In this document: piece by piece, positions 354 to 58,870 of the stretch | Layout: each line of letters begins with the position of its first letter | Numbering within the stretch: position 1 is the stretch's first letter | From: a virus | Reading direction: 5' to 3' (one strand) | Virus record (IMG/VR): IMGVR_UViG_3300017963_000025 | Coordinates: 21,382 to 85,381 of that record | Length of the DNA stretch: 64,000 nt | Position numbers and translations under genes: made by a program | Notes under the pieces: model-generated | Told to the model about the DNA's origin: nothing | Seen by the model: only the letters and a program-made list of their open reading frames with translations | Databases searched by the model: none

Positions 354-823
354 GATTATTTTGCAAAGAATGCGGGGGCGTGTTATACGGCTATCCACGA
401 CATTTTCATAAGGGCATGGATACTCTGTGCTCCCTCCGGTGTATGTGGAAGTGGGGGAAAACAAAACGAGTGGTGCCGGATATTCGTGTGCATCATTCCC
501 AGGAATTTGCCGAATTCCGTAGCCGATTTGAGATTATGTTTGCGGAATGGCTGACCGTCAACGGATTCCCTGTGATTTACGAACAGTATTTATTCAGGCT
601 TGGGGATCACGGATCATATACCCCGGATTTTTTTATCCCGGACGCGGGATTTGTGGAAGTCAAAGGCGTGTGGCATCCTGGGCAGCGTAAGAAAATGGAC
701 CGATTTATGGCGGAATATCCGGAAATTCCCATTGTATTGTTGCCGTGGCCGGTGAACATCCAACTATGTCCGCAAACGTTTGCGGACGACGGAGACGTGT
801 CCGATGTACGCAGAATTTTATGA
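350..823 (+). CDS. T7 endonuclease I-like PD-(D/E)XK nuclease with N-terminal Zn finger
   Basis: FRSRFE, YTPDF, FVEVKG motifs; CKEC..CSLRC. Confidence 0.75.
   Translation: MRLFCKECGGVLYGYPRHFHKGMDTLCSLRCMWKWGKTKRVVPDIRVHHSQEFAEFRSRFEIMFAEWLTVNGFPVIYEQYLFRLGDHGSYTPDFFIPDAGFVEVKGVWHPGQRKKMDRFMAEYPEIPIVLLPWPVNIQLCPQTFADDGDVSDVRRIL
769..786. repeat. 18-bp palindrome TCCGCAAACGTTTGCGGA copy 1
   Basis: Exact; within 3' end of 350-823. Confidence 0.95.
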
Positions 824-1775
824 TATGCTTGCTGACTGGCGATTGGGCCGTATCCCCGTTACGGAAGAGAGCAACACGATTGTTCCAAAAAATCCGACAA
901 GTCCGGATGCTCTTGCGGCGGATCGGACACGCCTGTTGGGTCTGGGACCGGACAATGATCAGGAATACGTCGGATTTCCACGGGCAAGCAGTATCCACGA
1001 TACCTGTATTCGCCATCATGTGATCGGATATAGGCACCGTATCCTCCGTTCGAATCGAAGTATCGGGTCAAATCTGAAACTGACATTTTTACAGGGGAGC
1101 GCCATCCACAAACTGGCGCAAAATACGAATGCGTTTTTCGGAGAGGATGAAAAAATCGGTAAGTGGAAATGTTTGGCGTGTGGGAAGACGCACCCGTTTG
1201 GGACGCACCCAGGCCAGTGTGATTATTGCGAAGCCGAAAAACCCGCAGTGACATACAAAGAGAATTACACCAAAATTGACCGACCCGGAAAATTTCAGGC
1301 CACCACCCACCAGGATATGTTTATTCGGGATACGGACGGGGCCATACGGGTGGTGGAATTTAAAACGATGGCCACGTCCACATTTCGGGATTTGGTGTCT
1401 CCGCTGGCGGCACATGAATGGCAGGTCATATTGACATCGACCATGGCGGCGGCGGACCTTGAATTGAGGAAGATTGAGCCGGTTTCCTGTGACTACGCCT
1501 ATATCCTGTACATTTCCAAGGGGCATCTGAAAGGCACGTTTCCATTGAAAATGTTTCGGGTGGACCGAACGGAAAAATTGTGGAGCAGGATTCGGGAAAA
1601 AGTCAGGCTGTTTGCTACCCATACGGCGGAAAAGACCCTGCCGGAACCACATCCGGAGTGTGTGTCATCCGGTTTTGACGCATGGCGGACCCGGATGTGT
1701 CCGTGCAAAAAAATGTGCCAAACATACAGAAATTACAATGATGGTGAAATTCCTGAGTGGGAGGGCGATACATGA
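804..1775 (+). CDS. Cas4-like/PD-(D/E)XK exonuclease
   Basis: ASSI..C.R, GSAIH, D...VVEFKT, WQV and C-terminal C..CPCKKMC cluster; ATG 804 with GGAG RBS. Confidence 0.7.
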   Translation: MYAEFYDMLADWRLGRIPVTEESNTIVPKNPTSPDALAADRTRLLGLGPDNDQEYVGFPRASSIHDTCIRHHVIGYRHRILRSNRSIGSNLKLTFLQGSAIHKLAQNTNAFFGEDEKIGKWKCLACGKTHPFGTHPGQCDYCEAEKPAVTYKENYTKIDRPGKFQATTHQDMFIRDTDGAIRVVEFKTMATSTFRDLVSPLAAHEWQVILTSTMAAADLELRKIEPVSCDYAYILYISKGHLKGTFPLKMFRVDRTEKLWSRIREKVRLFATHTAEKTLPEPHPECVSSGFDAWRTRMCPCKKMCQTYRNYNDGEIPEWEGDT

Positions 1776-2257
1776 TCTTGATTGGAGTTGATCCCGGTCT
1801 TGACGGGGCTATGGCTGTTTTGGCAGATGGAAAAGTTGTTTTTTTTGACACTCCCACCATCAACACAAAAAGCGGGAAAAGAAATAAGCGTGAATATAAC
1901 ATTGCTGAGATGGCACAGCGTCTTCGGAAACTGGACGATCCGGATATTAAAGTTTTAATCGCAATAGAAAAAATTCATGCAATGCCAAAGCAGGGAGTTT
2001 CATCCATGTTTAGCATGGGGTTCGGGTTTGGTATTTGGCAAGGAATACTTGCCGCGTATCAAATTCCCTATACGCTGGTTCCGCCGAAAATATGGAAAAA
2101 TAAAATTGTCGGTGTGGGGAAAGACAAGGAAGCATCTCGGCTAAAAGCAATTCAGTTGTTTCCGAAATGTGCCGAACAATTAAAGCGAAAAAAAGACCAT
2201 AATCGGGCCGAAGCCCTTTTAATTGCGGAATACACGCGACAAACACATCAATTATGA
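1772..2257 (+). CDS. RuvC-like Holliday junction resolvase
   Basis: IGVDPGLDG, IEK, QGVSSMFSMG, DHNRAEALLIA; ATGA overlap with upstream gene. Confidence 0.85.
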   Translation: MILIGVDPGLDGAMAVLADGKVVFFDTPTINTKSGKRNKREYNIAEMAQRLRKLDDPDIKVLIAIEKIHAMPKQGVSSMFSMGFGFGIWQGILAAYQIPYTLVPPKIWKNKIVGVGKDKEASRLKAIQLFPKCAEQLKRKKDHNRAEALLIAEYTRQTHQL

Positions 2258-2258
2258 A

Positions 2259-2276
2259 TCCGCAAACGTTTTCGGA
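2259..2276. repeat. 18-bp palindrome copy 2 (1 mismatch)
   Basis: 1 nt after RuvC stop, just upstream of -35. Confidence 0.85.
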
Positions 2277-2283
2277 TTTTCCA

Positions 2284-2312
2284 TTGACAATTTCCCAAAT
2301 AGGATGTATTAT
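2284..2312 (+). promoter_or_regulatory. sigma70-type promoter
   Basis: TTGACA-N17-TATTAT upstream of AAA ATPase. Confidence 0.7.
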
Positions 2313-2349
2313 AACAAATGTTTTTTTTCAATAATATATTTACGGGGGA

Positions 2350-3987
2350 ATGGGAATGAACCAAGTATCATTGGCACAATATTTGGCTGCGGGATATTCC
2401 GGTATTCATCTGAGAACGGATGATATTCATGAAGCACGGTGCTTCATCATCAATTCGCTAAAATCGGTCGAACTGGCCGAAGGTGACCGAAAGGTCACAA
2501 TGCTGGACCGAATGACGATTTATGAGTGGGAACCCCGTTTTGGGGGTGGAAGACTTGCCGAAATACCAAATGATTATGCAGACGGGGTGTATGACGATGA
2601 TGAATGGGAATCCGAGTCCAAAACAATTGACGATATGTTTATCGCTATGGAAGAGAAGGACCATGCCCTGTGTATCGTTAGGAATTCACGATCCTATTTG
2701 GAGGAAAGTCCGACCAATACCGCAACCAATGCTACGACTATTGCGGCGGCAACGGACGCACTGATTATGGCCAAAGATCGGGGGAGCGCGTTTGTATTTC
2801 TGGGCAGCATATTCAAACCAGCCCAAGAGATAGATTACCTGATTACCGTGGTGGATTCGCCCTACCCCACCCGTCGTGATATCCGAGACAAAGCGCGGGC
2901 CATGGCGGAAAGCGCGGAAATTGTCCCTGACAAAAGAGACAAACAGTACGCGACTTTTGAACGTAGCATTGCCGATGCCGCTATTGCCGGTTCCGGTATG
3001 AGTCACATGGCGGTTGAAAACGCACTGTCATTGTCCATTGCATTGACGGGGGCATTTGATCATCGTATCATCATGAACGAAAAATCCGCCGAAATCCGGA
3101 AATCCGACGTATTAGAATATTTTCCGGTGGATGAGGGATTGAAATATGTTGGTGGGATGGATTTGTTGAAAATGTATCTTTCGAAACGAAAAAACGCATT
3201 GGGAGAGGATGCGGAAAAATTCGGTATCCTTCCCCCGAAAGGCATTTTGTTGGCGGGTATTCCCGGCACCGGAAAAAGTTTGGTGGCGAAGGCCGTATCA
3301 TGTGAGTTTGGATGGCCATGCCTTCGGTTGGATATGGGGAAAGTGTTCCGGTCCTATGTCGGGCAATCCGAAGCGGCTATCCGAAATGCGCTACAAGTGG
3401 CAGAGGCGGTGTCTCCGTGTGTGTTGTTTATTGACGAAATTGAGAAATCCGTTGCCGGGGCCGGATCGGATACGGATTCCGGTACGAGTTCACGGGTGGT
3501 TTCCACGTTGCTCACATGGAGACAGGAAACCACGAAACCCGTTTTTCTGGCGTGTACGGCAAACAAGGTGAGCGCAATCCCCCCGGAATTGATGCGGCAT
3601 GGCAGGTTGGATGCTGTGTTTTTCACAGACACGCCAAACTATGCGGAGCGAGCGGAGATATTCAGAATTCATTTGGAAAAAAAACGGCGCGACCCTGACA
3701 TGTTCGACATTGCGGAATTGGCGGAACAATCGGCAGAGTTTATCGGGTCGGAGATTGAGCAATGCATTATGGATGCGTTATATTCGGCGTTCGACCAGAA
3801 AACCGAAATAACCACGGACCATATTCTCCGGGAAATCCTACAGACCAAACCCCTGTCTGTCAGGAATGCAGAGGAAGTCCGGTACATTCGGGAGTGGGGT
3901 ATGTCGCGTGCAAGGCCCGTGAGTTCGAAATATGACGGGGATAGATCAAGGAAAAAGGGGCGTGTGCTCCGAACAATAAAAAATTAA
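2350..3987 (+). CDS. AAA+ ATPase, Ycf46-like
   Basis: VGGMDLLK, GIPGTGKS (Walker A), LFIDEIEK (Walker B), TAN..PPELMRHGRLD. Confidence 0.9.
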   Translation: MGMNQVSLAQYLAAGYSGIHLRTDDIHEARCFIINSLKSVELAEGDRKVTMLDRMTIYEWEPRFGGGRLAEIPNDYADGVYDDDEWESESKTIDDMFIAMEEKDHALCIVRNSRSYLEESPTNTATNATTIAAATDALIMAKDRGSAFVFLGSIFKPAQEIDYLITVVDSPYPTRRDIRDKARAMAESAEIVPDKRDKQYATFERSIADAAIAGSGMSHMAVENALSLSIALTGAFDHRIIMNEKSAEIRKSDVLEYFPVDEGLKYVGGMDLLKMYLSKRKNALGEDAEKFGILPPKGILLAGIPGTGKSLVAKAVSCEFGWPCLRLDMGKVFRSYVGQSEAAIRNALQVAEAVSPCVLFIDEIEKSVAGAGSDTDSGTSSRVVSTLLTWRQETTKPVFLACTANKVSAIPPELMRHGRLDAVFFTDTPNYAERAEIFRIHLEKKRRDPDMFDIAELAEQSAEFIGSEIEQCIMDALYSAFDQKTEITTDHILREILQTKPLSVRNAEEVRYIREWGMSRARPVSSKYDGDRSRKKGRVLRTIKN

Positions 3988-4005
3988 CAAGAGAGGAATA
4001 ATTCC

Positions 4006-4968
4006 ATGGCAAAAGCAAAACTTGAAACAAAAACGAATGTGGGGCAGAGTACGATCAGCAAAACCGCGAGATCCCTGTACGATGCGATTATTAGTGCGGA
4101 CAGTGTGATTGATGATTCGTTTGTGTCTTTGGCAGAAAATCTCCACAAGTTCAGTTCGATGGAATACTACCAACAATTCGGGTATTCCAGATTCACAGAG
4201 TTTGCGGAGAAAGAGGTACGGATCGGTTCCCGGAAATCCGAATACATGGTGAAAATATGGAATTTCGTCAAGGATTGTGGTATTCCTACGAAAGAAGTAA
4301 AAAAACTCGGATGGTCAAAGATGAAAGAGGTGGCGCGGGTGGCATCCGTTGAAACCGCAAAGGCGTGGATGGAAAAAGCAAAAATGATGTCCACGCGGGA
4401 TTTAATCGCGGAGGTGAAAAAACACAAAAATCCGTCAAAACCGGGAGATGAAAACGGAAGCACGACCGAGTTTAAATTCACTGTGGACACGGACGAATCC
4501 ACCATTGTCACGGATGCCACTAATTTGGCGAAGACACTCGGAGCGAAAACGGATGCGGATGCCATGCTGGTGATTTGTCAAGAGTGGATGGAGTTCAAGG
4601 GGGAAAGTCCGGTCATCACGCCACTGGATACAATGCTTAAATACATGGCAGCTAATTACGGCGTGATCCTGACGGTTGCGGAACAACCTGAATCTGCGGA
4701 GGTGGCGGCGGAAAAAGAATCAAAAGAATCGGCAAAGAGAAAAGAAACAAAAAAGAAAACAAAACCGGATGCAAAGCCGAAAAAATCCAGAAAAATCGTG
4801 AAGACCGTTCCACCGCCGGATACAAGCTATAGCCCGGAAAGGGAACTGGACCGTATTATCGGAACCGAACCTCCTCCCCCGGAATTTGATTCGTTGGAAT
4901 CAATTATGGCTGGTAGTGCGAAGGAAAAAGGAACGGATGATTTCGATTTGGACGCATTTCTGGGGTAA
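4006..4968 (+). CDS. hypothetical protein, possibly DNA-binding (helical N-terminal domain, Lys-rich linker, acidic tail)
   Basis: Strong RBS GAGG; YYQQFGYSRFTEFAEKE..IGSRKSEY; C-terminus DDFDLDAFLG. Confidence 0.6.
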   Translation: MAKAKLETKTNVGQSTISKTARSLYDAIISADSVIDDSFVSLAENLHKFSSMEYYQQFGYSRFTEFAEKEVRIGSRKSEYMVKIWNFVKDCGIPTKEVKKLGWSKMKEVARVASVETAKAWMEKAKMMSTRDLIAEVKKHKNPSKPGDENGSTTEFKFTVDTDESTIVTDATNLAKTLGAKTDADAMLVICQEWMEFKGESPVITPLDTMLKYMAANYGVILTVAEQPESAEVAAEKESKESAKRKETKKKTKPDAKPKKSRKIVKTVPPPDTSYSPERELDRIIGTEPPPPEFDSLESIMAGSAKEKGTDDFDLDAFLG

Positions 4969-4971
4969 TTA

Positions 4972-5886: not shown

Positions 5887-6797
5887 AGAAGGACAACGGA
5901 AAAGTGTTCCCCGGTATTCGGTGGGAACACCAGGAGCAAGTCAAATTGCCAATCCGGTTGCTATACTATAATGGTTGGAACCCAAATGAAATGACTGAAA
6001 GCGAGTTTAACGCGCTATCCGGAAACGTGGACGAAGTGGCTATGCTTGACCCCGTGTTGGTCGTGCCGTGGACTACTACCGAACAACAGGTAGAAATCGA
6101 GGATCGTCTTTATACAGCGGATCATGGGCAGGTGGTGACAGACTGTGGAGAGGTGGTGTTCCGTGTCGTGGACGGGGAACACCGAACCGAACAGCAACGG
6201 ATTGCGGATGCGGAGTATATTCCCTGTATCATCGGACATCCGGAACGGTTGGACGAATTCATGCAGAAAAAACAGACCATGCGTATGAACATGATCCGGG
6301 GAAAACTGAACCGGAAAAAGTTCAATGCCCTGGTTGAGGATTTCATAAACAACTACGGGACGGACATGGATGCGTTGCCGGATGAACTTGGGTTTTCGGA
6401 TTCAAAGGAATTCTATCGCATGATTGACGTGGCGCGGGAATCCCTGCCGGAAGACCTTCAGAAAGAATTTGACCGGGTGAAGGACGGTATCACAAACATT
6501 GATGATCTGGGTGCGGTGATCAATCGGTTGTTTTCCGAGTTTGGTGACACCGTACCTGCGAACTATATGATTTTGGATTTCGGAGGCAAGGACCATATCT
6601 GGGTCAAAATATCAGTGGGGAAGTTTGACACCATGCGCCGGGTGGCGGATGACATTCGAAAGCACGGGCATACGTTTGATTCCATGATCTGTCATATTTT
6701 GGAACATCTGAATATCGAAAAATATGTCGAGCGTTATGGGGGTCAGTTGGAATTGATCGAATCACATCCGCAAACGTTTGCGGACGAGGAGGATTGA
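5853..6797 (+). CDS. ParB/Srx N-terminal domain protein
   Basis: WNPNEM..EFNAL, MLDPVLV, VVDGEHR ParB box-II-like motif. Confidence 0.8.
   Translation: MEFVGPVAKALKKDNGKVFPGIRWEHQEQVKLPIRLLYYNGWNPNEMTESEFNALSGNVDEVAMLDPVLVVPWTTTEQQVEIEDRLYTADHGQVVTDCGEVVFRVVDGEHRTEQQRIADAEYIPCIIGHPERLDEFMQKKQTMRMNMIRGKLNRKKFNALVEDFINNYGTDMDALPDELGFSDSKEFYRMIDVARESLPEDLQKEFDRVKDGITNIDDLGAVINRLFSEFGDTVPANYMILDFGGKDHIWVKISVGKFDTMRRVADDIRKHGHTFDSMICHILEHLNIEKYVERYGGQLELIESHPQTFADEED
6767..6784. repeat. 18-bp palindrome copy 3
   Basis: Exact; within last codons of ParB-like gene. Confidence 0.95.
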
Positions 6798-11129: not shown

Positions 11130-11147
11130 TCCGCAAACGTTTGCGGA
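11130..11147. repeat. 18-bp palindrome copy 4
   Basis: Exact; TAA-CCG-palindrome. Confidence 0.95.
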
Positions 11148-12180: not shown

Positions 12181-12374
12181 ATCGCGGTCAGTTAGACACC
12201 CATCAAAAACGAGTGATACACAAACCTAATCGGAGGGATATGTGGGAATCATAAGAAAAGGCATTGTGTACGGCAAAACAATCACAAGCTACAAAAACCC
12301 TCTCCGCAAATTGTGGAACATCCGCAAACGGCGGGGGGAGTCCAAAGAAAAGAAATGGGAAAAGGAAAACAAAC

Positions 12375-18354: not shown

Positions 18355-18933
18355 ATGAGAGAGCTTTCGCTTTTCACGGGGGCCGGCGGCGGGCTGCTTG
18401 CTGGCATGAAGCTCGGATGGGAGCCAGTAGGTTATGTCGAAAACAACGACTATCGGCAGCGAGTTATCAGGCAAAGGATTATTGACGGTTTCTTGCCAAA
18501 GGCACCGATCTTCGGTGATATCAAAGCATTCGTTAGTGAAGGGTACGCCGCAAGCTATCAGGGAATGGTTGATATCATTAGCGGCGGATTCCCCTGCCAG
18601 GACATCTCCGTTGCCGGAAAAGGCAAAGGTATTACCGGTAAAAAATCATCTCTCTGGTTTGCAATGGCCGATGCCATACGCATCATTCGACCCCGATACG
18701 TATTCATTGAAAACAGCCCAATGCTCCTTACTCGCGGATTCGAGTACGTCCTTGGTTCGCTTTTCGAAATGGGGTATGATGCGACGTGGGGTATTATATC
18801 CGCTGCCGACGTTGGCGCGTGGCATATCAGGAAAAGAATCTGGATTTTTGCTTCCCACACCGACGGTAAACGGCAACTACAACCGAAAAGGCGCGTCCAA
18901 ACATTCGGGGGACGGATTGGCCACGGCAATTAA
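18355..18933 (+). CDS. DNA cytosine-C5 methyltransferase, chain with motifs I-VIII
   Basis: SLFTGAGG, GGFPCQ, IENS, HIRKRIWI. Confidence 0.85.
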   Translation: MRELSLFTGAGGGLLAGMKLGWEPVGYVENNDYRQRVIRQRIIDGFLPKAPIFGDIKAFVSEGYAASYQGMVDIISGGFPCQDISVAGKGKGITGKKSSLWFAMADAIRIIRPRYVFIENSPMLLTRGFEYVLGSLFEMGYDATWGIISAADVGAWHIRKRIWIFASHTDGKRQLQPKRRVQTFGGRIGHGN

Positions 18934-19288
18934 ACGACTGCTCCACACATCGACGGTACAGGATGCAAAAAATAATGCTTCGGGAAGTCATGCGAATCCG
19001 AAACACACCGGTTTTCTAAATCCCGACTGGGTGGAATGGTTCATGGGATGGCCGGTGGGATGGTCCGATGTCAGAACGCTGAATAAACTTGTGTGGCTCC
19101 CGATAAACATGTGGCCTAATATTAAGCCAATCACGTACAAAAAAGAAAACAGAAGAAATCGCGTCAAAGCTATCGGTGACGGGCAGGTTCCGCAGGCGGC
19201 GATTCTGGCATGGAATATCTTGTCTGGTCCGCAAACGTTTGCGGACTTAATCCAGTGTTTTACCCCCGGTTTGACCGGGGGTAAGTAA
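18434..19288 (+). CDS. DNA cytosine-C5 methyltransferase, second chain (motifs IX-X) in overlapping +1 frame; start possibly TTG 18569
   Basis: DSPARTS, LPTP, LNPDWVEWFMGWP, RVKAIGDGQVPQ. Confidence 0.75.
   Translation: MSKTTTIGSELSGKGLLTVSCQRHRSSVISKHSLVKGTPQAIREWLISLAADSPARTSPLPEKAKVLPVKNHLSGLQWPMPYASFDPDTYSLKTAQCSLLADSSTSLVRFSKWGMMRRGVLYPLPTLARGISGKESGFLLPTPTVNGNYNRKGASKHSGDGLATAIKRLLHTSTVQDAKNNASGSHANPKHTGFLNPDWVEWFMGWPVGWSDVRTLNKLVWLPINMWPNIKPITYKKENRRNRVKAIGDGQVPQAAILAWNILSGPQTFADLIQCFTPGLTGGK
19228..19245. repeat. 18-bp palindrome copy 5
   Basis: Exact; within 3' end of MTase chain 2. Confidence 0.95.
19260..19284. terminator. hairpin at convergence of + and - strand genes
   Basis: TTACCCCCGGT-TTG-ACCGGGGGTAA perfect stem. 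Confidence 0.6.
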
Positions 19289-20952: not shown

Positions 20953-20970
20953 TCCGCAAACGTTTGCGGA
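20953..20970. repeat. 18-bp palindrome copy 6
   Basis: Exact; non-coding. Confidence 0.95.
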
Positions 20971-23352: not shown

Positions 23353-23391
23353 GATACCTCCTTTTCTGTCAGGGTAAATCCAAGGGTGTCA

Positions 23392-23409
23392 TCCGCAAAC
23401 GTTTGCGGA
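23392..23409. repeat. 18-bp palindrome copy 7
   Basis: Exact; intergenic. Confidence 0.95.
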
Positions 23410-23470
23410 TTTTTCTGTTGATTCGCTGAGACATTCCGCCCAGCTTGCCCGTCTGGCCATGACGGCAAAA

Positions 23471-23797
23471 TTATACTCTGCCAAACAAAATGTCAATCGG
23501 GTTAACACCGGTCATATCCTGTCTTTCCTCCAAATCTTCCTTGTCCAAGGTGATTTCATACCCTGCCAATTCATTTCTGTGAAAATCAAGGCTGTGCTGC
23601 GTGTTTCGTATGATAGATGCCTTGGTCTGGCCAATTACTCCGGGGAACAAGTGACCAAACTTTGCCACTGCTTCTTTGGCCGACATTTTTTTAACTTCGG
23701 CAAGTCTGCTTTCCAGGGTGTTGATGATTTCTCTCAATCTCAGGGTTTCTTCAAAATTTTCTATCCCGTAGATTTTTGTTTCGGTTGCGTTTGTCAT
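23471..23797 (-). CDS. hypothetical early protein
   Basis: Directly downstream of promoter cassette, GGGGG RBS. Confidence 0.65.
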   Translation of the reverse strand: MTNATETKIYGIENFEETLRLREIINTLESRLAEVKKMSAKEAVAKFGHLFPGVIGQTKASIIRNTQHSLDFHRNELAGYEITLDKEDLEERQDMTGVNPIDILFGRV

Positions 23798-23842
23798 GTC
23801 GACCCCCTTTTTGGTTAGTGTGTTTCCCCGTTACTGAAATAT

Positions 23843-23903
23843 ATAATAATTCCTTTTAAGGAAATTGTCAAGCATTATTTTTCATATTTTTTATTTTTTT
23901 TAC
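23843..23903 (-). promoter_or_regulatory. early promoter cassette copy
   Basis: TTGACA(23871-23866)-N17-TATTAT(23848-23843) plus same UP element. Confidence 0.85.
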
Positions 23904-23993
23904 ATGATAACCGTCCAAGGCCATCCTGGCCACACGGTCAGGGGGCCATTCCGACAGAAATTCGTTCCAGCCCGCTCGAAGCGGGCTACTTTG

Positions 23994-24011
23994 TCCGCAA
24001 ACGTTTGCGGG
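23994..24011. repeat. 18-bp palindrome copy 8 (1 mismatch)
   Basis: Intergenic. Confidence 0.9.
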
Positions 24012-24084
24012 GTTATATTGACATGTGTTTTATCTGTTCGGCAAGTATGGCGCATCGCTCTCTTATTTTTATATATCCAATGCG

Positions 24085-24495
24085 CTATTCTCCCCCGATA
24101 GTATGCCCGCATCCGTCCACGCCACAGGTGAGTTTTCTGGCAAAACACGGATATGTGTGGTCAAGAGAAAAGCATCTGTAATGGCAATAGTGTTGAAAAA
24201 AATTACACCAGTAATCCGGTGCAAGGTTTGCACACATTTTTTTGCTCAGAAATTTTTCAACAGCATCAACGTCACTATGAGCCATAAAAAATGAGAATTT
24301 TTCATGACCAAACTGATAATCGAAAAGCATGTAATCGTATATTTCAGGTGGTTTGATTGTCAAGCCTTGGGGGAAACGCAATGAAAATTCCGTATCAGGC
24401 CATGCGGCTACAAAAAATCGCCCTATTACCGTAATCTTTTCTCCGTGCTTCGGTCCTCCGATACAATACGCCGTTACTTTTTGGGCATTTTCCAT
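24085..24495 (-). CDS. hypothetical protein with Cys-rich C-terminus
   Basis: RBS AGGAG; CIGGPKHG motif. Confidence 0.55.
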   Translation of the reverse strand: MENAQKVTAYCIGGPKHGEKITVIGRFFVAAWPDTEFSLRFPQGLTIKPPEIYDYMLFDYQFGHEKFSFFMAHSDVDAVEKFLSKKMCANLAPDYWCNFFQHYCHYRCFSLDHTYPCFARKLTCGVDGCGHTIGGE

Positions 24496-24512
24496 TTGAC
24501 TCTCCTTTTTTG

Positions 24513-24773
24513 TCAGAATTCAAGCCAACCCGTGCGGCGGGATTTTTTGTATTGATTTGCAGCTCCGCCCCATTCCAATAGCCACCCAAATTCCCGATCA
24601 AATACCCGCCCGCACCTGGTTTCAAATAATTCCCTTTCTTCCCCTTCGCACAACGAGAAAAATGATCTTTTTACAATTGCCGAATTTCGAGAATATAAAC
24701 CACTCCCACATTTTAGATAATATGCTATTTTTTTCCCGTTATATATTTTCACAGCTTTACCTCCCATGTCCAT
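24513..24773 (-). CDS. hypothetical early protein
   Basis: Downstream of promoter 24820-24848. Confidence 0.45.
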   Translation of the reverse strand: MDMGGKAVKIYNGKKIAYYLKCGSGLYSRNSAIVKRSFFSLCEGEERELFETRCGRVFDREFGWLLEWGGAANQYKKSRRTGWLEF

Positions 24774-24819
24774 GTGTCGGCCCCCTTGTGGTTAAGTGTT
24801 TTCCCCATGTTCTGAGTAT

Positions 24820-24864
24820 ATAATAATTCCTTTTAAGGCAATTGTCAAGTATTATTTTTCATAT
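24820..24864 (-). promoter_or_regulatory. early promoter cassette copy (divergent pair, leftward)
   Basis: TTGACA(24848-24843)-N17-TATTAT(24825-24820). Confidence 0.85.
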
Positions 24865-24898
24865 AACCGAATATTTGCGAGAGAGCGTTATTTTGATG

Positions 24899-24994
24899 GT
24901 GTACATCCGTGTAAAAAAAATAAAAATATGAAAAATAATACTTGACAATTGCCTTAAAAGGAATTATTATATATTCCAGACAGCGAGAGAAACC
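24899..24994 (+). promoter_or_regulatory. early promoter cassette; arm 2 of 96-bp inverted repeat
   Basis: TTGACA(24942)-N17-TATTAT(24965). Confidence 0.85.
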
Positions 24995-25015
24995 GACAAC
25001 CACGGGAGAAAGACA

Positions 25016-25459
25016 ATGAAAAAGCAATCCGCTATTGGAAAAATTCTGAGGGACATCCATACAAGTTATGTTACCGGAAAACCTCTTGATATGCGTCGTC
25101 ATCCGGCCCATGTTAAAACCAGGGTCATAGATTTTGGTTGGATGATCCATAGTGACACCGGACGATGGTACGGGAATCTTGTTCGGGATTGTTACCAACG
25201 TCTTTCCACTGCGGAATTGTATGAAATATTTTTGGATATGGTCCGTGATCTGGGACCGGAATATGTCGGCGGGATGATAAGAACATCCGACATATGGGAT
25301 AGCGTTCTTAACGTATCCGCAGACAAAGCAAATAGGCGGTTGGATATCATGCAATATCTTGAAAGGCTTGACCGTAACGGGTATATCGTATTCCAATATG
25401 CCGGAGACGTATGGTCAATAACCATTATTAGGGAGGGGAAAATCAATGACCATATTTGA
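25016..25459 (+). CDS. hypothetical early protein
   Basis: First gene after promoter, GGAG RBS. Confidence 0.6.
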   Translation: MKKQSAIGKILRDIHTSYVTGKPLDMRRHPAHVKTRVIDFGWMIHSDTGRWYGNLVRDCYQRLSTAELYEIFLDMVRDLGPEYVGGMIRTSDIWDSVLNVSADKANRRLDIMQYLERLDRNGYIVFQYAGDVWSITIIREGKINDHI

Positions 25460-28676: not shown

Positions 28677-28751
28677 AAAAAATATGAAAAATAATGCTTG
28701 ACAATTGCCTTAAAAGGAATTATTATATATTTCAGACAGCGAGAGAAACCC
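28677..28751 (+). promoter_or_regulatory. early promoter cassette copy
   Basis: TTGACA(28698)-N17-TATTAT(28721), same leader CAGACAGCGAGAGAAACC. Confidence 0.85.
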
Positions 28752-28768: not shown

Positions 28769-28786
28769 TCCGCAAACGTTTGCGGA
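28769..28786. repeat. 18-bp palindrome copy 9
   Basis: Exact; between early promoter and RBS. Confidence 0.95.
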
Positions 28787-28803: not shown

Positions 28804-29100
28804 ATGAATAGGTTAAAAAAAATTTATTCGGATTGTAAAGTCTTGGGTTTGAGTCAAATGATAGTGGATGGTTCCAAATGGTATGATACACAGGTGACTG
28901 ATTTTAATGATATTATGATTATTGCCGAACGAGGCTGTGATGGCCTCGGGCGCAAAATTCGCAAAATGGCATTGTCTTTACAAGACATTGATGGCTGCCA
29001 AAAACTTGTTGATTTTGACCCGGAAGAAATTTTGCTTATTTACGGTGATCAAATAAAAAAAAGAGAGAATTCGGATACCGACGTATGGAGGGAAATATGA
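28804..29100 (+). CDS. hypothetical early protein
   Basis: RBS AGGAGG. Confidence 0.6.
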   Translation: MNRLKKIYSDCKVLGLSQMIVDGSKWYDTQVTDFNDIMIIAERGCDGLGRKIRKMALSLQDIDGCQKLVDFDPEEILLIYGDQIKKRENSDTDVWREI

Positions 29101-30389: not shown

Positions 30390-30407
30390 TCCGCAAACGT
30401 TTGCGGA
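30390..30407. repeat. 18-bp palindrome copy 10
   Basis: Exact; TAA-CCG-palindrome. Confidence 0.95.
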
Positions 30408-33726: not shown

Positions 33727-33744
33727 TCCGCAACCGTTTGCGGA
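33727..33744. repeat. 18-bp palindrome copy 11 (1 mismatch)
   Basis: After ferritin stop. Confidence 0.9.
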
Positions 33745-37471: not shown

Positions 37472-37489
37472 ACCGCAAACGTTTGCGGA
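37472..37489. repeat. 18-bp palindrome copy 12 (1 mismatch)
   Basis: After Res fragment stop. Confidence 0.9.
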
Positions 37490-42097: not shown

Positions 42098-42115
42098 TCC
42101 GCAAACGTTTGCGGA
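42098..42115. repeat. 18-bp palindrome copy 13
   Basis: Exact; abuts scaffold stop, before capsid RBS. Confidence 0.95.
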
Positions 42116-42148: not shown

Positions 42149-43069
42149 ATGAAAGGTTCGAAAATTGTTGAAAAAGCGGACATCGCAGTCAGCAATCTGA
42201 TTAGCGACGGCGGATATCTCAACCCGGAACAGTCTGACCGGTTCATCCAAATGCTGCAAGACCAGCCCACCATTCTCAGGGCTGTACGTACCGTACGTAT
42301 GAACGCGCCACAACGGAAAATTGAGAAAATCGGATTCGGTTCTCGTATTCTACGGGCCGCGCCGGCCAGTGGCACCGCGCTTGCCGCAGGGGACCGAAGT
42401 GCGCCCACTACGGATATGGTAACACTCACCACCAAAGAGGTGATTGCCCAGGTCAATCTGCCCTATGACGTGCTCGAAGACAATATCGAGCGGGGCAACC
42501 TGAATTCAACCATCATGAGCATGATGGCTGAACGGGTGGCACTGGACAGTGAGGAGTGGTTGCTTTTGGCGGACACCGGGTCAGGGGATGCGTTTCTGGC
42601 GCTGGCGGACGGTGCCATTGTCAGCGCAACGGATCATGTAATTGACGAAACCGCCGCACCGGTGGCTGTCACAAAGGGCATTTTCAAAGAGGGTATCAAG
42701 GCGCTTCCGAACAAATACCAGCGAGTGAGAAACCAACTCAGATTTATGGTGTCCCCCGATGTCGCCACCGAATGGATTGACGAATTTGCGGATCGGGAAA
42801 CGGCGGAAGGCGACGCTAAAATGAAAGGGGGAGGGATCAACCCGGCCTATGGCGTTCCGCTGATGATATCCGCGCTGATGCCAAACAATACCTATCTGCT
42901 TACCTTTCCCCAGAACATGATTTGGGGCGTACAACGTCAGATCATGGTAGAAACAGACAAAGACATTGAAACACGGGTATATAAGATCGTGCTGACCATG
43001 CGGATGGATTTTGCCTATGAGGAAACCGACGCAGTGGTAAAATTTATCGGCATTAATCCGGATGCGTAA
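42149..43069 (+). CDS. major capsid protein (HK97 fold, XkdG-like)
   Basis: GGYLNPEQSDRFI, KIGFGSRIL, LEDNIE, N.IWGVQRQI. Confidence 0.9.
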   Translation: MKGSKIVEKADIAVSNLISDGGYLNPEQSDRFIQMLQDQPTILRAVRTVRMNAPQRKIEKIGFGSRILRAAPASGTALAAGDRSAPTTDMVTLTTKEVIAQVNLPYDVLEDNIERGNLNSTIMSMMAERVALDSEEWLLLADTGSGDAFLALADGAIVSATDHVIDETAAPVAVTKGIFKEGIKALPNKYQRVRNQLRFMVSPDVATEWIDEFADRETAEGDAKMKGGGINPAYGVPLMISALMPNNTYLLTFPQNMIWGVQRQIMVETDKDIETRVYKIVLTMRMDFAYEETDAVVKFIGINPDA

Positions 43070-45256: not shown

Positions 45257-45274
45257 TCCGCAAACGTTTGCGGA
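45257..45274. repeat. 18-bp palindrome copy 14
   Basis: Exact; TAA-CCG-palindrome before tail tube. Confidence 0.95.
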
Positions 45275-45295: not shown

Positions 45296-46306
45296 ATGAC
45301 AGCACCTGTTACGCACAGTGCGGATAACTACAGCCTGGGAAAAGGGATCGGTTATTTCGACAAGATGGAAAACGGAAATTACACCGGTGAAATGGACCTG
45401 GGCAATTGCTCGGCACTGACTTGGAACGTGGATGTTGAAAAACTGGCCCATTTTTCCAGTCGAAGCGGGATGAGAAAAAAAGACAAAGAAATCACGGTGC
45501 AGGTGACCCCGCGATTTACGGCCACGGCGGACGAACTTACGCCGGACCTGATGTCCATGATGGGGATGGGCGAAATCACCCGGATGGTTCAGGCAGCGGG
45601 AGAGAGTAGTGTCACCGTTACCACGAAAAAAAATCGGTATTTCAAAGTTGGAACGCAACGAAACATCGGGATTACCGTGCTCCAATACAAAAACGGCGAT
45701 TCTGCGTGGAATTTGGACGCCACCGTATCCGGTGCCACCGGGAGCGGGACCATTGTCGGGATTGAGATTACGTCCGGCACACCGGCTGGCGGGGACGAAG
45801 CGGGATACCTGCTTTTGCAAAGTGTCACCCCCGGATTCGTGGCAGACGAGGCGATCACCGACGACGGCACCACCCCCGGTTCCGGTGACGCGGTGGCCCC
45901 CGAATCCTTTGACAGTACCCGATTCAGTGTGCGGGAGGGGAGCACCGAATATGTCAGAGGCACGGATTTCAGCGTGGACGGCACGACCGGACGAATATTC
46001 ATTCTGGCAGATTCCACGATTGCGGACGACACCAGTGTCACCGTTTATTACGGATATGAGGCCACCGAGTGGAGCCAGATCAAATGCTACGAGGACAGCC
46101 AGATCGAAGGCGCGTTCCGATTTGTTCAGGACAATCCCACCGGGATCAACAAATCCTTTTACGCACCGAAGGTGTCCGTGGCTCCGTCCGGGGACGTACC
46201 GTTGGTCGGAGAGGATTGGGAAACCATTACCCTTGAATTCGAAGTGTTGGCGGACGCAAACGGGGATTACATCTTCCTTGATATTCCGGACGAGGTGGTG
46301 ACCTAA
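45296..46306 (+). CDS. major tail tube protein
   Basis: NYSLGKG, DLGNC, HFSSRSG.R.KD, DNP.G, P.GD..L..EDW. Confidence 0.8.
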   Translation: MTAPVTHSADNYSLGKGIGYFDKMENGNYTGEMDLGNCSALTWNVDVEKLAHFSSRSGMRKKDKEITVQVTPRFTATADELTPDLMSMMGMGEITRMVQAAGESSVTVTTKKNRYFKVGTQRNIGITVLQYKNGDSAWNLDATVSGATGSGTIVGIEITSGTPAGGDEAGYLLLQSVTPGFVADEAITDDGTTPGSGDAVAPESFDSTRFSVREGSTEYVRGTDFSVDGTTGRIFILADSTIADDTSVTVYYGYEATEWSQIKCYEDSQIEGAFRFVQDNPTGINKSFYAPKVSVAPSGDVPLVGEDWETITLEFEVLADANGDYIFLDIPDEVVT

Positions 46307-53021: not shown

Positions 53022-53039
53022 TCCGCAAACGTTTGCGGA
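53022..53039. repeat. 18-bp palindrome copy 15
   Basis: Exact; abuts stop of 52629-53021. Confidence 0.95.
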
Positions 53040-54528: not shown

Positions 54529-54831
54529 ATGCCATATCCGAGTGAACACGCCTGCCGGTTAAACAATCCCGGCAAATATGTGCGCATACGGCGACGAAAT
54601 AACTACGCACAGGTGGACGGAAAACAGGTGGACTATATTTTCGGGATACGCAGGGACGGGAAAACAGAAACACAGGCCATGCGGTTCCCGGTGTCCGCTT
54701 GGACCGCATCCGCCGCACGACGTTATTGACGAGAAAAGGGGGGCCAGTTTGAGGCCGCCATGCCAAAAAAATACTATGTAGTTCGGTATTGCAAACCGAA
54801 ATACAGAAGACTGATTAGGATAATTCGATAA
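54529..54831 (+). CDS. small protein with in-frame UGA (54727-54729): candidate selenoprotein or pseudogene
   Basis: Strong RBS; MPYPSEHACRL..WTASAARRY-UGA-REKGGQFEAA; readthrough ends at TAA abutting next ATG; SECIS-like hairpin 54739-54759. Confidence 0.55.
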
Positions 54832-56652
54832 ATGCCGGTTGTACTATTCGGAAAAGCACAGGATCCGTATGTTTATACACACTACGGGTTTGTGGTGGAA
54901 ACACCCTATGAGACTGGATTTGCGTTGATTACGGATGTGCCGTATTCCATGACAAATGCCATACGGGTGATTACCACGTCCGAATTTGACAATCAATGGG
55001 TAATCAGGATGACCACACCGGAACCGCTCAACGTGTCCATTGCTATTATATGTGAAGTTCCGACGACCTTGGTTATCGAGAAAATGATCAGTATCATTGT
55101 TGCCGCACCGGAAAGCACGGTGCCGGATACGCCGGATGTTCAAATTCCGCCACCGACCCAATCCGTTGGAGGGACAACGGAGCGCCCGATTGTTCTGGAC
55201 CACCCGGAGGGAACATTTGAGTATTGTGACTACGCTGTATATTTTAACAACACATTGATTACCCACGACGTGTTGGACGGGCTGACTATTAACCGCAACT
55301 TGGACACGGTGTTTGACGAGATAACGTTGCGCACCCATTCAACCGTAGTGACGGAAGCATTGGCGAACTATGACGACAATGCGTTGTTCGCAGAAAACAG
55401 TATCATTGTGGTGATCGGAACGGACATATACTCATTCATTGTGGAAGACCGACAAAAAGCGCAATATGGCATCATGGAGGTATGGGGGCGCTCATCCGCA
55501 GCACTCTATGATAAGCCGTACCATAAGGAATTGACCATTGTCGCGGAAGAGCAAACAAGCACCGGGAGTATTATTGTCGCCACTGGTGCCGGAAAAGTGG
55601 TATCGTGGGAAGTCCATTCATGGACAATTCCAAAAAACGCGTCATTTTACGGAACACCGATTGACATTCTGATGAGGCTAGCGGAAACCGTCGGTGCGGT
55701 GGTACGCAATACGGCGGACGGCGGACTGGTGGTAAAATATCCGTTTGTCAGTCCGGGAAAAATGGATTCATATACGCCGTTTGCCGATTTTTCCGGGGAC
55801 AATCTGTTTCGAATCGGGGAGAGCGCTGAAAAAGGCAACGGATACAACCGGGTTGAAGTTATTGGGCATCAGGACCAGGATATCACGCCGATTATTAAGC
55901 GCAGCATCATTCAAGAGGGCCGACAAATAATTACGGACGATGCGGAAAACCCGATGATCGGGGATACCGTGGATATCGTTGTTTTTCTTCCCTATTATGA
56001 CCCGGAAGCCAGTACCGGATATGATCTGAATGTTACCGGTGGTCCGAATCGGGTGATGCCGTGGAGTGTACAATATATCGAAGTTCAAGAGGTGGTCGGC
56101 GTGGACAACGGTGTCGGTAGCACATCGGTTCCTGTCCGTCACATTATGGGTTTTCAATCGTTTGGCGGCAATCCGGGTTCCGCCATTATGATCGCGCCAA
56201 ATGCCACCGAATTCAGAACATCCAATCAATCTTTTACCGGTTCAGGGTTGCTGCGATATATGGCATACGGAATCGGCTACCGAGTGATAGGTATGCCGGA
56301 CGTGGACGAAACCGGTATTGCCGCCGAATACCGTCCGAGTCCCCAGGTGGATGTATTTATCACCCGTTCCGCCGATACAAGATCAGATGCGCCACCGATT
56401 GTTGATGACCTGATTACGGATGAGAAAGTGGCCAAGATGCGCGGGCTTCGATTTTTTATAGACGAGGGGTATAATACCTATTCGGTTCCGGTCCAATTTC
56501 CGTATACACAGGGACTAGGGGACGGCGATCTGGTATCCGTAAATGAGGCGGATATCGGAGTTCGGGGAAATTATATAGTTAAAGACCTCGTGATCTCATT
56601 AAACGGACCTCAGTATATTATGGAAGGCACACTTGTGCGGTGGAGCGGATAA
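54832..56652 (+). CDS. tail hub/baseplate-like protein
   Basis: EVWGRS..A, GTPIDILMRLA..VGA.V, YNRVEV, IVDDLIT.E.VA..RG. Confidence 0.6.
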   Translation: MPVVLFGKAQDPYVYTHYGFVVETPYETGFALITDVPYSMTNAIRVITTSEFDNQWVIRMTTPEPLNVSIAIICEVPTTLVIEKMISIIVAAPESTVPDTPDVQIPPPTQSVGGTTERPIVLDHPEGTFEYCDYAVYFNNTLITHDVLDGLTINRNLDTVFDEITLRTHSTVVTEALANYDDNALFAENSIIVVIGTDIYSFIVEDRQKAQYGIMEVWGRSSAALYDKPYHKELTIVAEEQTSTGSIIVATGAGKVVSWEVHSWTIPKNASFYGTPIDILMRLAETVGAVVRNTADGGLVVKYPFVSPGKMDSYTPFADFSGDNLFRIGESAEKGNGYNRVEVIGHQDQDITPIIKRSIIQEGRQIITDDAENPMIGDTVDIVVFLPYYDPEASTGYDLNVTGGPNRVMPWSVQYIEVQEVVGVDNGVGSTSVPVRHIMGFQSFGGNPGSAIMIAPNATEFRTSNQSFTGSGLLRYMAYGIGYRVIGMPDVDETGIAAEYRPSPQVDVFITRSADTRSDAPPIVDDLITDEKVAKMRGLRFFIDEGYNTYSVPVQFPYTQGLGDGDLVSVNEADIGVRGNYIVKDLVISLNGPQYIMEGTLVRWSG

Positions 56653-56654
56653 AC

Positions 56655-56858
56655 ATGCAGGGACGTATCACTGAAAAATTGGGGCGGGACTACTATGTGC
56701 TGGATACCGGGTATGGGTCAATTCGATTCTATTCCCCCACACCGTTGGATGTCGGATACATAGTTACGGTTACGGACACGGGGGGCGGCATATTGGCATT
56801 TACACATAAAAAGGTTCAGTATGCCCCGGAAAACATTCCAACGATAAAGGTGGGCTGA
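56655..56858 (+). CDS. small tail protein
   Basis: MQGRITEKLG..; synteny. Confidence 0.5.
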   Translation: MQGRITEKLGRDYYVLDTGYGSIRFYSPTPLDVGYIVTVTDTGGGILAFTHKKVQYAPENIPTIKVG

Positions 56859-57691
56859 TGGGCAGAGCGACCTATAAAATCAGTTACCAGGAACCTGTGG
56901 CTGATACGTCTGTCTCAATCACATGGGATACCGCGTCAAACGGTGACCGTAGTTCGCCGTTTGAGTTGGGTGGCGACCCTGTGTACTTCAAAGTTCAAAG
57001 CAGCGGTGATTACCAATTATGGGTAACTGCCGGACGTGCGCGTCGGGTGAGTACGGGAACATCGGAAAGTCGCGGAGAGGAAATCGTATTTGCCCACGAG
57101 GATGAAAAACAACTTGGTGCGACTCCGGAAGACACGCCCACCTTGTCATGGGTACGAAACGCGGTTGAAAGAGCCGCCATAGAAAGCGTGGAGGACGGCA
57201 TCTTGAAAATGACCGGATACGCAACCGGCTTGGCCAACATATCTTACGGAACCGGTGGCGGGGACCGATGGGAACTGACCTTGCCCCAAGAAGGAACGGG
57301 AACAGAAAAAGTTGCAATCATCGCACGGTCTTATGAAGGCACCGGAGCGGATCGTGTATGGGGCGGGTCGGCATCATTGGTGTTTGAGGTGCGGGAGCCG
57401 ATTGAAGTGGAACCGGCGTTTGACAACATCGCCATTTTATGCCGGGATACGGCACTGGCTCCCTTGTCCGGTACGACGGTAATCATAACGCTGTCGGGCG
57501 GAGGCATAATGACCGCACAATCCAACGCGGACGGATGGGCATTTTTTGATCAGGTGCCATACGGCACACATGACATAAAATTTACACACCCTCGAGTCAC
57601 GGACAGCGATCAGGATGATTTGGCAAATGACACGATTACCGTGGGTCCGACCGCACCCACCGCACCGGAGTTTGAGGGGGATGGTGAGTAG
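56858..57691 (+). CDS. tail structural protein with C-terminal beta-sandwich
   Basis: PLSGTTV...SNADGWAFFDQVPYGTHDI. Confidence 0.55.
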   Translation: MGRATYKISYQEPVADTSVSITWDTASNGDRSSPFELGGDPVYFKVQSSGDYQLWVTAGRARRVSTGTSESRGEEIVFAHEDEKQLGATPEDTPTLSWVRNAVERAAIESVEDGILKMTGYATGLANISYGTGGGDRWELTLPQEGTGTEKVAIIARSYEGTGADRVWGGSASLVFEVREPIEVEPAFDNIAILCRDTALAPLSGTTVIITLSGGGIMTAQSNADGWAFFDQVPYGTHDIKFTHPRVTDSDQDDLANDTITVGPTAPTAPEFEGDGE

Positions 57692-58356
57692 TGGAACGAA
57701 CCGAATATACATTTGATTTGCAAAGCGAATGCCCGACCGGTCCGTGTCGTCCGTGTTGCGGCGTCTGTAATTTCGGACTGAAACAGGTGGCAGAGGATAT
57801 GTGGGAATCCGTATTGCTGCCACGTTTGGTGGGAGATCGGACGCCCTATTGCTATATATTGACAGCGGATTATGATCCGATATGCGGAAATTGGCAAGAT
57901 ATCACCCCTCCGAATAATTGGGGTAGCAACACTGCCGTATGGGCCACTGATGAGGAAGGAAATTATTGGGGACCGACAAATGACACCATCAGTTATGTCC
58001 GTTTTCGCCGGGCGGGATTACAGGGGCCTTCCGGGGATTTGATCCGGCGACCCTATGACATATGCGAATGTTGGCGATTTACATTTGAGGGGCTGTCTTC
58101 TGCCCATGCGGATTACACCTACGCATGTTTCAATCTGCCACCTGATATTCAATTTTATAACATTGGTATTAGCGAGACTATAAGTTCCGGTGTGCCGTTT
58201 ACCTATCAATTTTCCACCGCACGACGAAACTGTTTCAATTCCGGAAGGGATGTATTCCAGTTTTACAGTGTGGGTCTTAATCATCCGGCCTATCCGGAAG
58301 CGCAACCATTGGGGCCTGATTTTAAAATCAGGAAAATAGAGGTATCCAGATTATAG
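57691..58356 (+). CDS. hypothetical tail protein with Cys-rich N-terminus
   Basis: CPTGPCRPCCGVC. Confidence 0.5.
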   Translation: MERTEYTFDLQSECPTGPCRPCCGVCNFGLKQVAEDMWESVLLPRLVGDRTPYCYILTADYDPICGNWQDITPPNNWGSNTAVWATDEEGNYWGPTNDTISYVRFRRAGLQGPSGDLIRRPYDICECWRFTFEGLSSAHADYTYACFNLPPDIQFYNIGISETISSGVPFTYQFSTARRNCFNSGRDVFQFYSVGLNHPAYPEAQPLGPDFKIRKIEVSRL

Positions 58357-58372
58357 GAGAGAGGAGAACGCC

Positions 58373-58849
58373 ATGCCGTGGCTATTCGGATTAATGCAAC
58401 TTGGCACGGTGTCGGAAGTCGGCACCCATTTGAATATTCAGGATTCGTTTACCGGCGAACACGTACCGGTGGGGGGTATCGTCGGGTATGACGGGGATTA
58501 TCTGCAAACCGTGGTGGCCGGGTATGCGGGAATGGTGCTCGAACGGAAAGGTGTTGGTCTGGGCGTTGGGAACGAAACCTCTTACCGCGATTGTAAGCGA
58601 AAAACAGAGATTGTTATCAAAATATTGTGCAGTGACAATGTTAGTATCGGTGCTCGGATCAAACTACGGGACGCATTCGGGGAAATTATGTATCTTCCGA
58701 ACCAGACACTTACCCAGACAGGAATTACGGAAAACGGGCAATATCTGGCCGAATTGCACCTTTCCAAAACATACGGAGCGGCGGAATTCGCAGTGAGGGT
58801 GACATCACTCGCATCCGGCACAGCGGATATTTGGCTGGCCAGTGTTTGA
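58373..58849 (+). CDS. hypothetical structural protein
   Basis: GAGGAG RBS. Confidence 0.55.
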   Translation: MPWLFGLMQLGTVSEVGTHLNIQDSFTGEHVPVGGIVGYDGDYLQTVVAGYAGMVLERKGVGLGVGNETSYRDCKRKTEIVIKILCSDNVSIGARIKLRDAFGEIMYLPNQTLTQTGITENGQYLAELHLSKTYGAAEFAVRVTSLASGTADIWLASV

Positions 58850-58852
58850 CCG

Positions 58853-58870
58853 TCCGCAAACGTTTGCGGA
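58853..58870. repeat. 18-bp palindrome copy 16
   Basis: Exact; TGA-CCG-palindrome. Confidence 0.95.

Follow-up and report, generated by a model that had tools for sequence, protein, structure and literature searches.

A genome-wide array of evenly spaced palindromes in a clade of large siphoviruses, and candidate proteins that may read it

Short DNA sites repeated over a whole replicon have been described in several systems. Stoperators, the L5 gp71 sites of Cluster A mycobacteriophages, are asymmetric sites that follow the direction of transcription; their reader is the immunity repressor of a temperate phage. The Cluster O phage Corndog carries 34 copies of TGTTCGG-N3-CCGAACA, a 17-bp inverted repeat. 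Cluster O repeats are intergenic, at gene edges and mid-gene, unoriented, seldom near promoters and absent from the host genome; no function was assigned to them, and a dimeric protein was suspected (Cresawn et al. 2015, PMC4351075). On the IncP plasmid RK2, proximal operators of KorB lie 4–10 bp upstream of promoters, and KorB is a ParB-family clamp that loads at its OB operator and slides (McLean et al. 2025, PMC11790492). Here we describe an 18-bp perfect palindrome dispersed over the IMG/VR virus contig IMGVR_UViG_3300017963_000025 (85,381 bp), of which bases 21382–85381 form the window, the 64-kb stretch that was analysed. On balance, we hold it to be probable that its ~22 copies serve a symmetric or dimeric phage protein as an array of DNA sites over the whole genome, kept ~4 kb apart by selection on the DNA word.

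Copies, coding context and spacing of the palindrome

The palindrome has the arms CCGCAA/TTGCGG around the centre ACGT, a 16-bp core within the 18 bp. Twelve exact and four one-mismatch copies were found in the window, with none expected, and 100 dinucleotide-preserving shuffles of the window contained no copy. The whole genome has 22 copies, 18 of them exact and four with one mismatch. An earlier reading of the window from its letters alone (the sequence-only reading) had counted the same 12 and four copies, and our scan found each of them where it had been listed. Our gene map, made of home-made calls labelled by Pfam and PHROG matches, reproduced their placement as well: seven window copies lie 0–3 nt past a stop codon, four of them as stop-CCG-palindrome, and three fall in gene 3′ ends, where they read PQTFAD. 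Decayed half-sites noted near 12303–12335 were confirmed (Table 1). The claim that no gene body is interrupted held for the window, but not upstream of it, where copies sit mid-gene in the portal, primase and superfamily 2 (SF2) helicase genes.

Mid-gene copies occur where long genes offer no intergenic slot. The portal copy encodes I-R-K-R-L-R and aligned without gaps on the conserved block T-I-R-K-x-x-R-x-D, in which R135 and R139 were invariant across 20 homologues. In the helicase, the copy follows the DExH box and encodes P-P-Q-T-F-A-D, ungapped against PPQTFAP, PPETFSP and similar peptides in relatives. The primase copy was uninformative, lying in a gapped, variable linker of the alignment. 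In the proteome, each of the three [FLIV]RKRLR[..] and each of the five PQTFA[DE] peptides is encoded by the exact 18-mer; the chance of this spelling from codon usage is, per case, 1.6e-3 for RKRLR and 1.8e-2 for PQTFA[DE]. The ungapped in-gene copies and the exact spelling show that the copies are not insertions, and that the DNA word was fitted to the protein. The palindrome is selected at the DNA level.

The sites are also spread evenly, with a mean interval of ~4 kb around the genome. Measured on the circular whole genome, the gaps between them had a coefficient of variation (CV) of 0.50, and the largest gap was 8.1 kb. Random placement gave a gap CV of 0.94 (P = 5.5e-4), and random choice among gene boundaries gave 1.00 (P = 5e-5).

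A site class shared by related phages

Relatives were not found when viral contigs were searched with the portal as a single protein, but an alignment-based search did find them. Portal homologues at 28–46% identity were common on contigs of 80–105 kb, and the phage belongs to a large group of siphoviruses of this size with their own replication and recombination genes. Several of the homologues (P0043, P0051, P0061, P0067, P0075 and others) were 900–980 aa long and carried PF14528, which suggests an intein or a homing-endonuclease-type insertion in related phages.

Most of the 80 IMG/VR loci from the portal-alignment search had a repeated 14-bp palindrome or near-palindrome of their own, with 5-nt arms and a 4-nt centre (for example TGCAAGCGCTTGCA, TGCACACGTGTGCA, TGCAATCGATTGCA, TGCAACCGGTTGCA, TGCAGGWWCCTGCA and TGAAATCGATTTCA). 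One locus had TGCAAACGTTTGCA, which shares the core of this phage. Judged from these words, the 18-mer is best described as the local version of a clade-wide class, TGCAA-N4-TTGCA.

Twelve relatives were compared as full genomes. Arrays were present in eight of them, with 15–62 copies (0.25–0.61 per kb, at most 0.2 expected) and gap CVs of 0.35–0.77. Four cultured phages have arrays: Rhodobacter phage RcTiptonus, Rhizobium phage L338C, Pseudomonas phage SM1 and Aeromonas phage HJ05. In relative G002, the repeated 18-bp word was a different one, CTTTCA-N6-TGAAAG, with only ~8–9 copies, including one ahead of the AAA ATPase gene; this genome also holds the 10-mer AATTACTACA in 16 copies. The full-genome scan revealed no array in G005, G006 and G012; what these three have in common with the phage is structural genes only, without its replication and recombination module. 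In G005, a non-palindromic word of ~28 nt was present in 8–12 copies.

The arms covary between phages (TGCAA/TTGCA, TGCAG/CTGCA, TGAAA/TTTCA and CCGCAA/TTGCGG), and it is the sequence of the half-site arms, not pairing alone, that is kept across deep divergence. The sequence-only reading had proposed such a comparison as a way of telling a protein site from an RNA structure; the kept arm sequence favours a function at the DNA level. Between 27 and 69% of the relatives' sites were intergenic and 20–50% lay deep in genes, at a coding fraction of ~0.9. Where centres are asymmetric, both orientations were found on the same coding strand, without significant bias in seven of the eight relatives.

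No description for this clade emerged from literature searches on the motif sequences and on dispersed palindromes in phages, and the repeat goes unmentioned in the RcTiptonus paper. The earlier statement that the motif was not recognised from any described system needs qualification: the motif is clade-wide, cultured phages included, and has a close published analogue in Cluster O. The exact 18-mer was found in IMG/VR on two single-copy contigs, which is chance level. Metagenome contigs had it at 80 loci, all single-copy and none from a sister phage; four had arms of the type found in the bacterial genome described below. A megablast search of INPHARED with 12 kb of the phage as query gave no match. 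According to a listing of sequencing runs, phage DNA is present in a sediment and a seawater metagenome, one of each, and in no listed RNA run. As a marker, the motif identifies this phage clade cleanly, and its sites would constrain synonymous recoding of these phage genomes.

Among 185,579 species genomes, the exact 18-mer was found at 72 loci, of which 14 were in a single metagenome-assembled genome (MAG), Spirochaetota bacterium JTS-AC98. This MAG has 33 exact 16-mer cores and 63 sites at ≤2 mismatches, symmetric variants included; 121 other genomes of its order had no exact 16-mer core. Its cores sit in perfect palindromes of 28–40 bp with covarying outer arms (GATAGG/CCTATC, GATAGC/GCTATC, TAATATG/CATATTA). 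Two copies examined in context lay past or between gene ends, and six matches to Y1 transposases, of the type associated with repetitive extragenic palindromes (REP; the transposases are known as RAYT), were above cut-off. This is the typical REP/RAYT picture. In the MAG, three palindromes lie within 7 kb of the parAB locus. They too are at gene ends, and a canonical parS is missing from the 16 kb around the locus.

Genomic context, candidate readers and competing explanations

The contig has a 123-bp terminal repeat. A long open reading frame (ORF) at window positions 61140–64000, >950 aa, runs off the contig end and seems to resume across the repeat at the contig start. The record is probably a circularly closed assembly and does not show true physical ends. 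By Pfam and PHROG labels, the phage has a siphovirus gene set with DNA polymerase, DnaB-like helicase, primase, SF2 helicase and UvsX-like recombinase. Further genes encode endonuclease I-like, RuvC-like, exonuclease, AAA ATPase, ParB-like and terminase proteins, and the structural genes include portal, capsid-type protein, major tail protein and an 1850-aa tape measure. A MerR-type helix-turn-helix (HTH) protein and other HTH proteins are also encoded. No integrase or immunity repressor was identified in the phage, though no systematic search for them was made. Six promoters of the identical type TTGACA-17-TATTAT were found, at genome positions 23665(+), 41933(-), 45252(-), 46229(-), 46323(+) and 50079(+), corresponding to window positions 2284, 20552, 23871, 24848, 24942 and 28698. 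Four of the six cluster around the AT-rich, partly minus-strand accessory region (window ~19.3–25 kb).

Table 1 Palindrome copies and two associated genes in the window (window coordinates).
Feature	Position	Strand	Context
Exact copy	769..786	.	Inside 3′ part of endonuclease I-like gene (470–823), read PQTFAD
One-mismatch copy	2259..2276	.	1 nt past stop of gene 1772–2257
Cdc48/NVL/Rix7-like double-AAA ATPase, 543 aa	2356..3987	+	Pfam AAA, E 1e-29
ParB-like protein, 314 aa	5853..6797	+	PHROG 26387, E 3e-56; ParB N-terminal-type domain (NPNEM, VDGEHR), then helical domain
Exact copy	6767..6784	.	Last codons of ParB-like gene (PQTFADEED-stop), variable acidic tail
Exact copy	11130..11147	.	3 nt past stop codon (TAA-CCG-palindrome)
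Two direct half-sites (decayed copy)	12304..12330	+	In the largest gap of the array
Exact copy	19228..19245	.	3′ end of methyltransferase-like ORF (18779–19288), read PQTFAD; separate GC hairpin next
Exact copy	20953..20970	.	Intergenic, AT-rich accessory region
Exact copy	23392..23409	.	Between minus-strand genes; among the few copies with a T-run, + strand only
One-mismatch copy	23994..24011	.	Intergenic, ~123 nt upstream of minus-strand TTGACA-17-TATTAT promoter
Exact copy	28769..28786	.	5′ leader, downstream of promoter 28698–28726, 17 nt before start codon at 28804
Exact copy	30390..30407	.	3 nt past stop codon, 23 nt before next start
One-mismatch copy	33727..33744	.	18 nt past stop codon
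One-mismatch copy	37472..37489	.	10 nt past stop codon, 23 nt before next start
Exact copy	42098..42115	.	Directly past stop codon, before capsid-type structural gene (42149–43069); same-boundary site in relative G003
Exact copy	45257..45274	.	3 nt past stop, before major tail protein gene (45296–46306); same-boundary site in relative G003
Exact copy	53022..53039	.	Directly past stop codon, downstream of tape measure module
Exact copy	58853..58870	.	3 nt past stop codon (TGA-CCG-palindrome)

The ParB-like protein, with a predicted ParB/Noc/KorB fold, is the leading candidate reader of the palindromes. Its homologues carry PF02195, and its AlphaFold2 model (predicted local distance difference test, pLDDT, 78) had ParB, Noc and KorB as best Foldseek matches in the PDB, over ~210–250 columns with E-values of 8e-8 to 6e-7. 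The gene itself holds a palindrome site, and the promoter of its operon has another that ends 7 nt upstream of the -35 box, which recalls the proximal operators of KorB. The MerR-type HTH protein is another candidate and is equally non-discriminating: its gene was not detected in the array-bearing G007, G009 and G014, and the presence of MerR_1 does not separate array-bearing from array-less relatives.

In the mechanism that we propose, a phage-encoded symmetric dimer would bind each palindrome, so that the whole genome would be covered or marked. In the style of ParB, KorB and Noc, a clamp would load at the sites and slide away from them, a model that would explain both the loading sites every few kb and the few sites abutting promoters. 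The coverage might serve silencing or timing, compaction, protection or packaging. That a protein binds, which protein it is and what the coverage is for are points that we infer from the patterns above. A site for a dimeric protein, acting genome-wide, had also been put forward by the sequence-only reading; it fits every computed test (in-codon word, even spacing, covarying arms, unoriented centres, weak RNA), with its reader still a candidate.

Several observations weigh against such an array or against its ParB-like reader. ParB_N proteins were present in all tested genomes that are ≥90% complete, including the array-less G005; the G006 protein was below cut-off, and the incomplete, array-less G012 and G017 had one. 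The presence of the family thus does not predict an array. Conversely, no orthologue of the ParB-like protein was found in G010 and only a faint one in G011, both array-bearing. CTPase ParBs have a canonical arginine-rich box, GERRxRA, in the N-domain; the alignment of the ParB-like N-domain shows a conserved V-D-G-E-H-R, and the putative recognition helix is acidic. Unlike in several relatives, 18 of the 21 core-matching sites of this phage are intergenic or at gene edges. Most sites (18/22) lie away from promoters, which leaves an array that simple operator control cannot account for. As RNA, the site of this phage folds at -8.9 kcal/mol, and at -14.3 kcal/mol with flanks at one site.

The placement at gene edges and this fairly stable hairpin would also suit an RNA function. 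Once transcribed, the palindrome would form a 7-bp stem with an ACGU loop, and this hairpin could stabilise mRNA, be a site of processing, terminate transcription weakly or couple translation between cistrons. We regard that as quite unlikely to be what the array is for, even though 10 of the 15 intergenic copies in the whole phage start 0–3 nt past a stop codon and lie 13–33 nt before the next start, and two copies have T-runs. Copies also lie inside the essential portal, primase and helicase genes, in the portal and helicase within conserved peptides; the even spacing has no obvious RNA rationale, and a single transcript can hold asymmetric loops of both orientations. Folding of the relatives' sites as RNA reaches only -2.5 to -5.1 kcal/mol. 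Conventional terminators, with long GC stems and T-runs, are found elsewhere in the phage, and the window had no match in Rfam at gathering score. The deep-in-gene sites of relatives, unoriented centres, weak RNA folds, conserved arms, separate terminators and lack of an Rfam match argue for a conserved function at the DNA level, independent of the direction of transcription. In this phage, whose hairpin is GC-richer, a secondary RNA effect may exist; as the conserved function, the RNA alternative of the sequence-only reading is weakened. Its remark that the copies have no consistent U-tract and are not ordinary terminators was sound: an intrinsic terminator (GC hairpin and U-tract at operon ends) was ruled out, as most copies are without a T-run and some lie inside essential genes. 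An operator set, through which a conventional transcription factor (stoperator-like repressor, MerR-like or LacI-like) would control gene timing from promoter-linked sites, is in our view very doubtful. Four sites (genome 2069, 23640, 45375 and 50150) do adjoin, or sit just downstream of, strong sigma70-type promoters. The site at window 2259..2276 ends 7 nt before the -35 box of the TTGACA-17-TATTAT promoter at 2284–2312, which heads the AAA ATPase/ParB-like/terminase operon, and its position there is kept in relatives; HTH proteins that could act as regulators are encoded. Against this stand the sites off promoters, including those in gene bodies, their even spacing, and their symmetry and lack of orientation, unlike stoperators. 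The array-bearing relatives without a detected MerR-like gene speak against MerR in particular. A possible likeness of the core to LacI/PurR-type operators was dropped; the centres of relatives are often without the central CG. For the Cluster O repeats, a transcriptional role was thought unlikely by the authors who described them (PMC4351075).

It is unlikely, too, that the sites serve DNA transactions, as targets of a nuclease or nickase or as recombination or replication-initiation points seeding recombination-dependent replication. Arrays do track the module of DNA polymerase, DnaB, SF2 helicase, UvsX-like protein and AAA ATPase, and are absent with it from G005, G006 and G012. Among the phage proteins are endonuclease I-like, RuvC-like and exonuclease ones and a ParB-like 'nuclease' family member. 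A process that must run along the whole genome would be well served by regular spacing, and deletions between repeats were seen in Cluster O (PMC4351075). However, a double-strand cut at each perfect palindrome would break the genome into pieces. The sites show no strand bias, a nuclease whose specificity matches them was not identified, and in G002 the module is accompanied by a low-copy site only. Least probable, and to our minds very improbable, is a selfish or host-derived REP-like element spread by a RAYT-type transposase or gene conversion and possibly acquired from the host. The sequence-only reading had named an abundant host REP-like repeat as a finding that would speak against it. 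JTS-AC98 provides one in form, and the phage copies are nearly identical to each other, but nothing besides the core ties this MAG to the phage, whose DNA is from sediment and seawater metagenomes. A 20-kb phage segment matched JTS-AC98 at the palindrome only, with no spacer or prophage match in those 20 kb. The phage copies are without the outer arms of the MAG, and the phage had no match to the Y1 transposase (PF01797). Its in-gene copies are not insertions, even spacing is not expected of a selfish repeat, and the motif class follows the phage lineage across Rhizobium, Rhodobacter, Pseudomonas and Aeromonas phages. By our estimate, a chance match of the core with some REP family is plausible, since there are 65,536 possible 16-bp palindromes and the scan took in ~185,000 genomes. 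The core common to phage and MAG is possibly coincidental, and it is not evidence of a borrowed host repeat.

The operon with the ParB-like gene starts with the double-AAA ATPase. Its AlphaFold2 model (pLDDT 86) aligned with VIA-align over residues 4–519 to NVL (Z 26.4) and Rix7 (Z 26.1), and also to Pex1/6, VAT and p97. On this model, the protein is a protein-remodelling machine and not a DNA reader. Its N-terminal half was considered as a DNA-binding domain and rejected, as the whole protein aligns to tandem-AAA unfoldases; a homologue search with residues 1–290 alone gave no matches. The ATPase was present in every array-bearing clade genome and absent from the three array-less ones. A site lies 60–220 nt upstream of its gene in this phage and in seven of ten further clade genomes (G002, G003, G007, G010, G011, G014 and G015). 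In G008, G009 and HJ05, the nearest upstream site was 516–1,908 nt away.

Long homologues of the ATPase were found in all Cluster O phages (32% identity, residues 145–523, E 1e-49). When all 138 phage proteins were compared with Corndog, only the ATPase (gp96, E 3e-54) and a methyltransferase piece matched, the ATPase being the one strongly shared gene, and two Corndog sites bracket the start of gp96 (23355–25055). The family is large in metagenomes. A counter-example to the association of ATPase and array is the Streptococcus satellite Javan368, which has a long AAA homologue and no array; Vibrio phage SIO-2 matched the AAA core only and had ≤4 copies of a half-related word. The association is a lead, resting on two independent lineages. 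The site at the ATPase promoter and the tie of the ATPase to Cluster O are new here.

A wider form of the dimeric-protein reading would join these parts. The palindrome array, a ParB/KorB-like reader and the Cdc48-like double-AAA unfoldase could together be an undescribed genome-wide phage chromatin system, arisen in or exchanged between this clade and Cluster O, which we consider rather unlikely. In such a system, the reader would load at the even sites and coat or mark the chromosome, for timing, for protection from host nucleases and defences or for separation from host DNA, and the AAA machine would strip or recycle the reader.

Comparison with described systems

The phage array resembles REP/RAYT elements in its near-identical palindromes just past stop codons. 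It differs from them in the copies within conserved portal and helicase codons, the short palindrome without outer arms, the even spacing and a class that tracks the phage lineage. With stoperators it shares dozens of near-identical short sites over the genome, often in short intergenic gaps, and a single phage protein as reader, in our case a proposed one. The sites of this phage are palindromic, however, and the asymmetric centres of its relatives are unoriented in seven of eight genomes.

The likeness to KorB and its OB operator is in the short perfect palindrome, present in many dispersed copies on a mobile replicon, some just ahead of a -35 box, within a few bp, and others well away from promoters. 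As in ParB, KorB and Noc systems, the replicon encodes a ParB-family protein with an N-terminal domain and a predicted HTH DNA-binding domain, assigned here from homologues with PF02195 and from a model that matches ParB, Noc and KorB. Differences are the DGEHR in the N-domain of the phage protein instead of the arginine-rich box, and a site of unrelated sequence whose density, even spacing and in-gene copies exceed those on RK2. A KorA or ParA partner was neither sought nor found.

The Cluster O repeats are the closest to this array. Both have invariant inverted arms, a short, variable and unoriented centre and tens of copies (>30 per 70 kb in Cluster O), placed between genes, at gene edges and mid-gene without transcriptional orientation. 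Cluster O phages, too, encode a ParB-like protein and a homologue of the double-AAA ATPase. The lineages are unrelated, and the two shared proteins and the different arms do not point to a common ancestor, whether of the phages or of the site. The spacer is 3 nt there and the centre 4 nt here, and the Corndog sites are unevenly spaced (CV 1.06) and crowded into the right arm. The Cluster O repeats are the only published parallel and have been unexplained since 2015. Many large siphoviruses, including cultured Pseudomonas, Rhizobium, Rhodobacter and Aeromonas phages, carry a strongly selected, evenly spaced DNA word of this kind. Since some members are in culture, the question can be put to a direct test, which could uncover a new way for phages to organise, time or protect their genomes.

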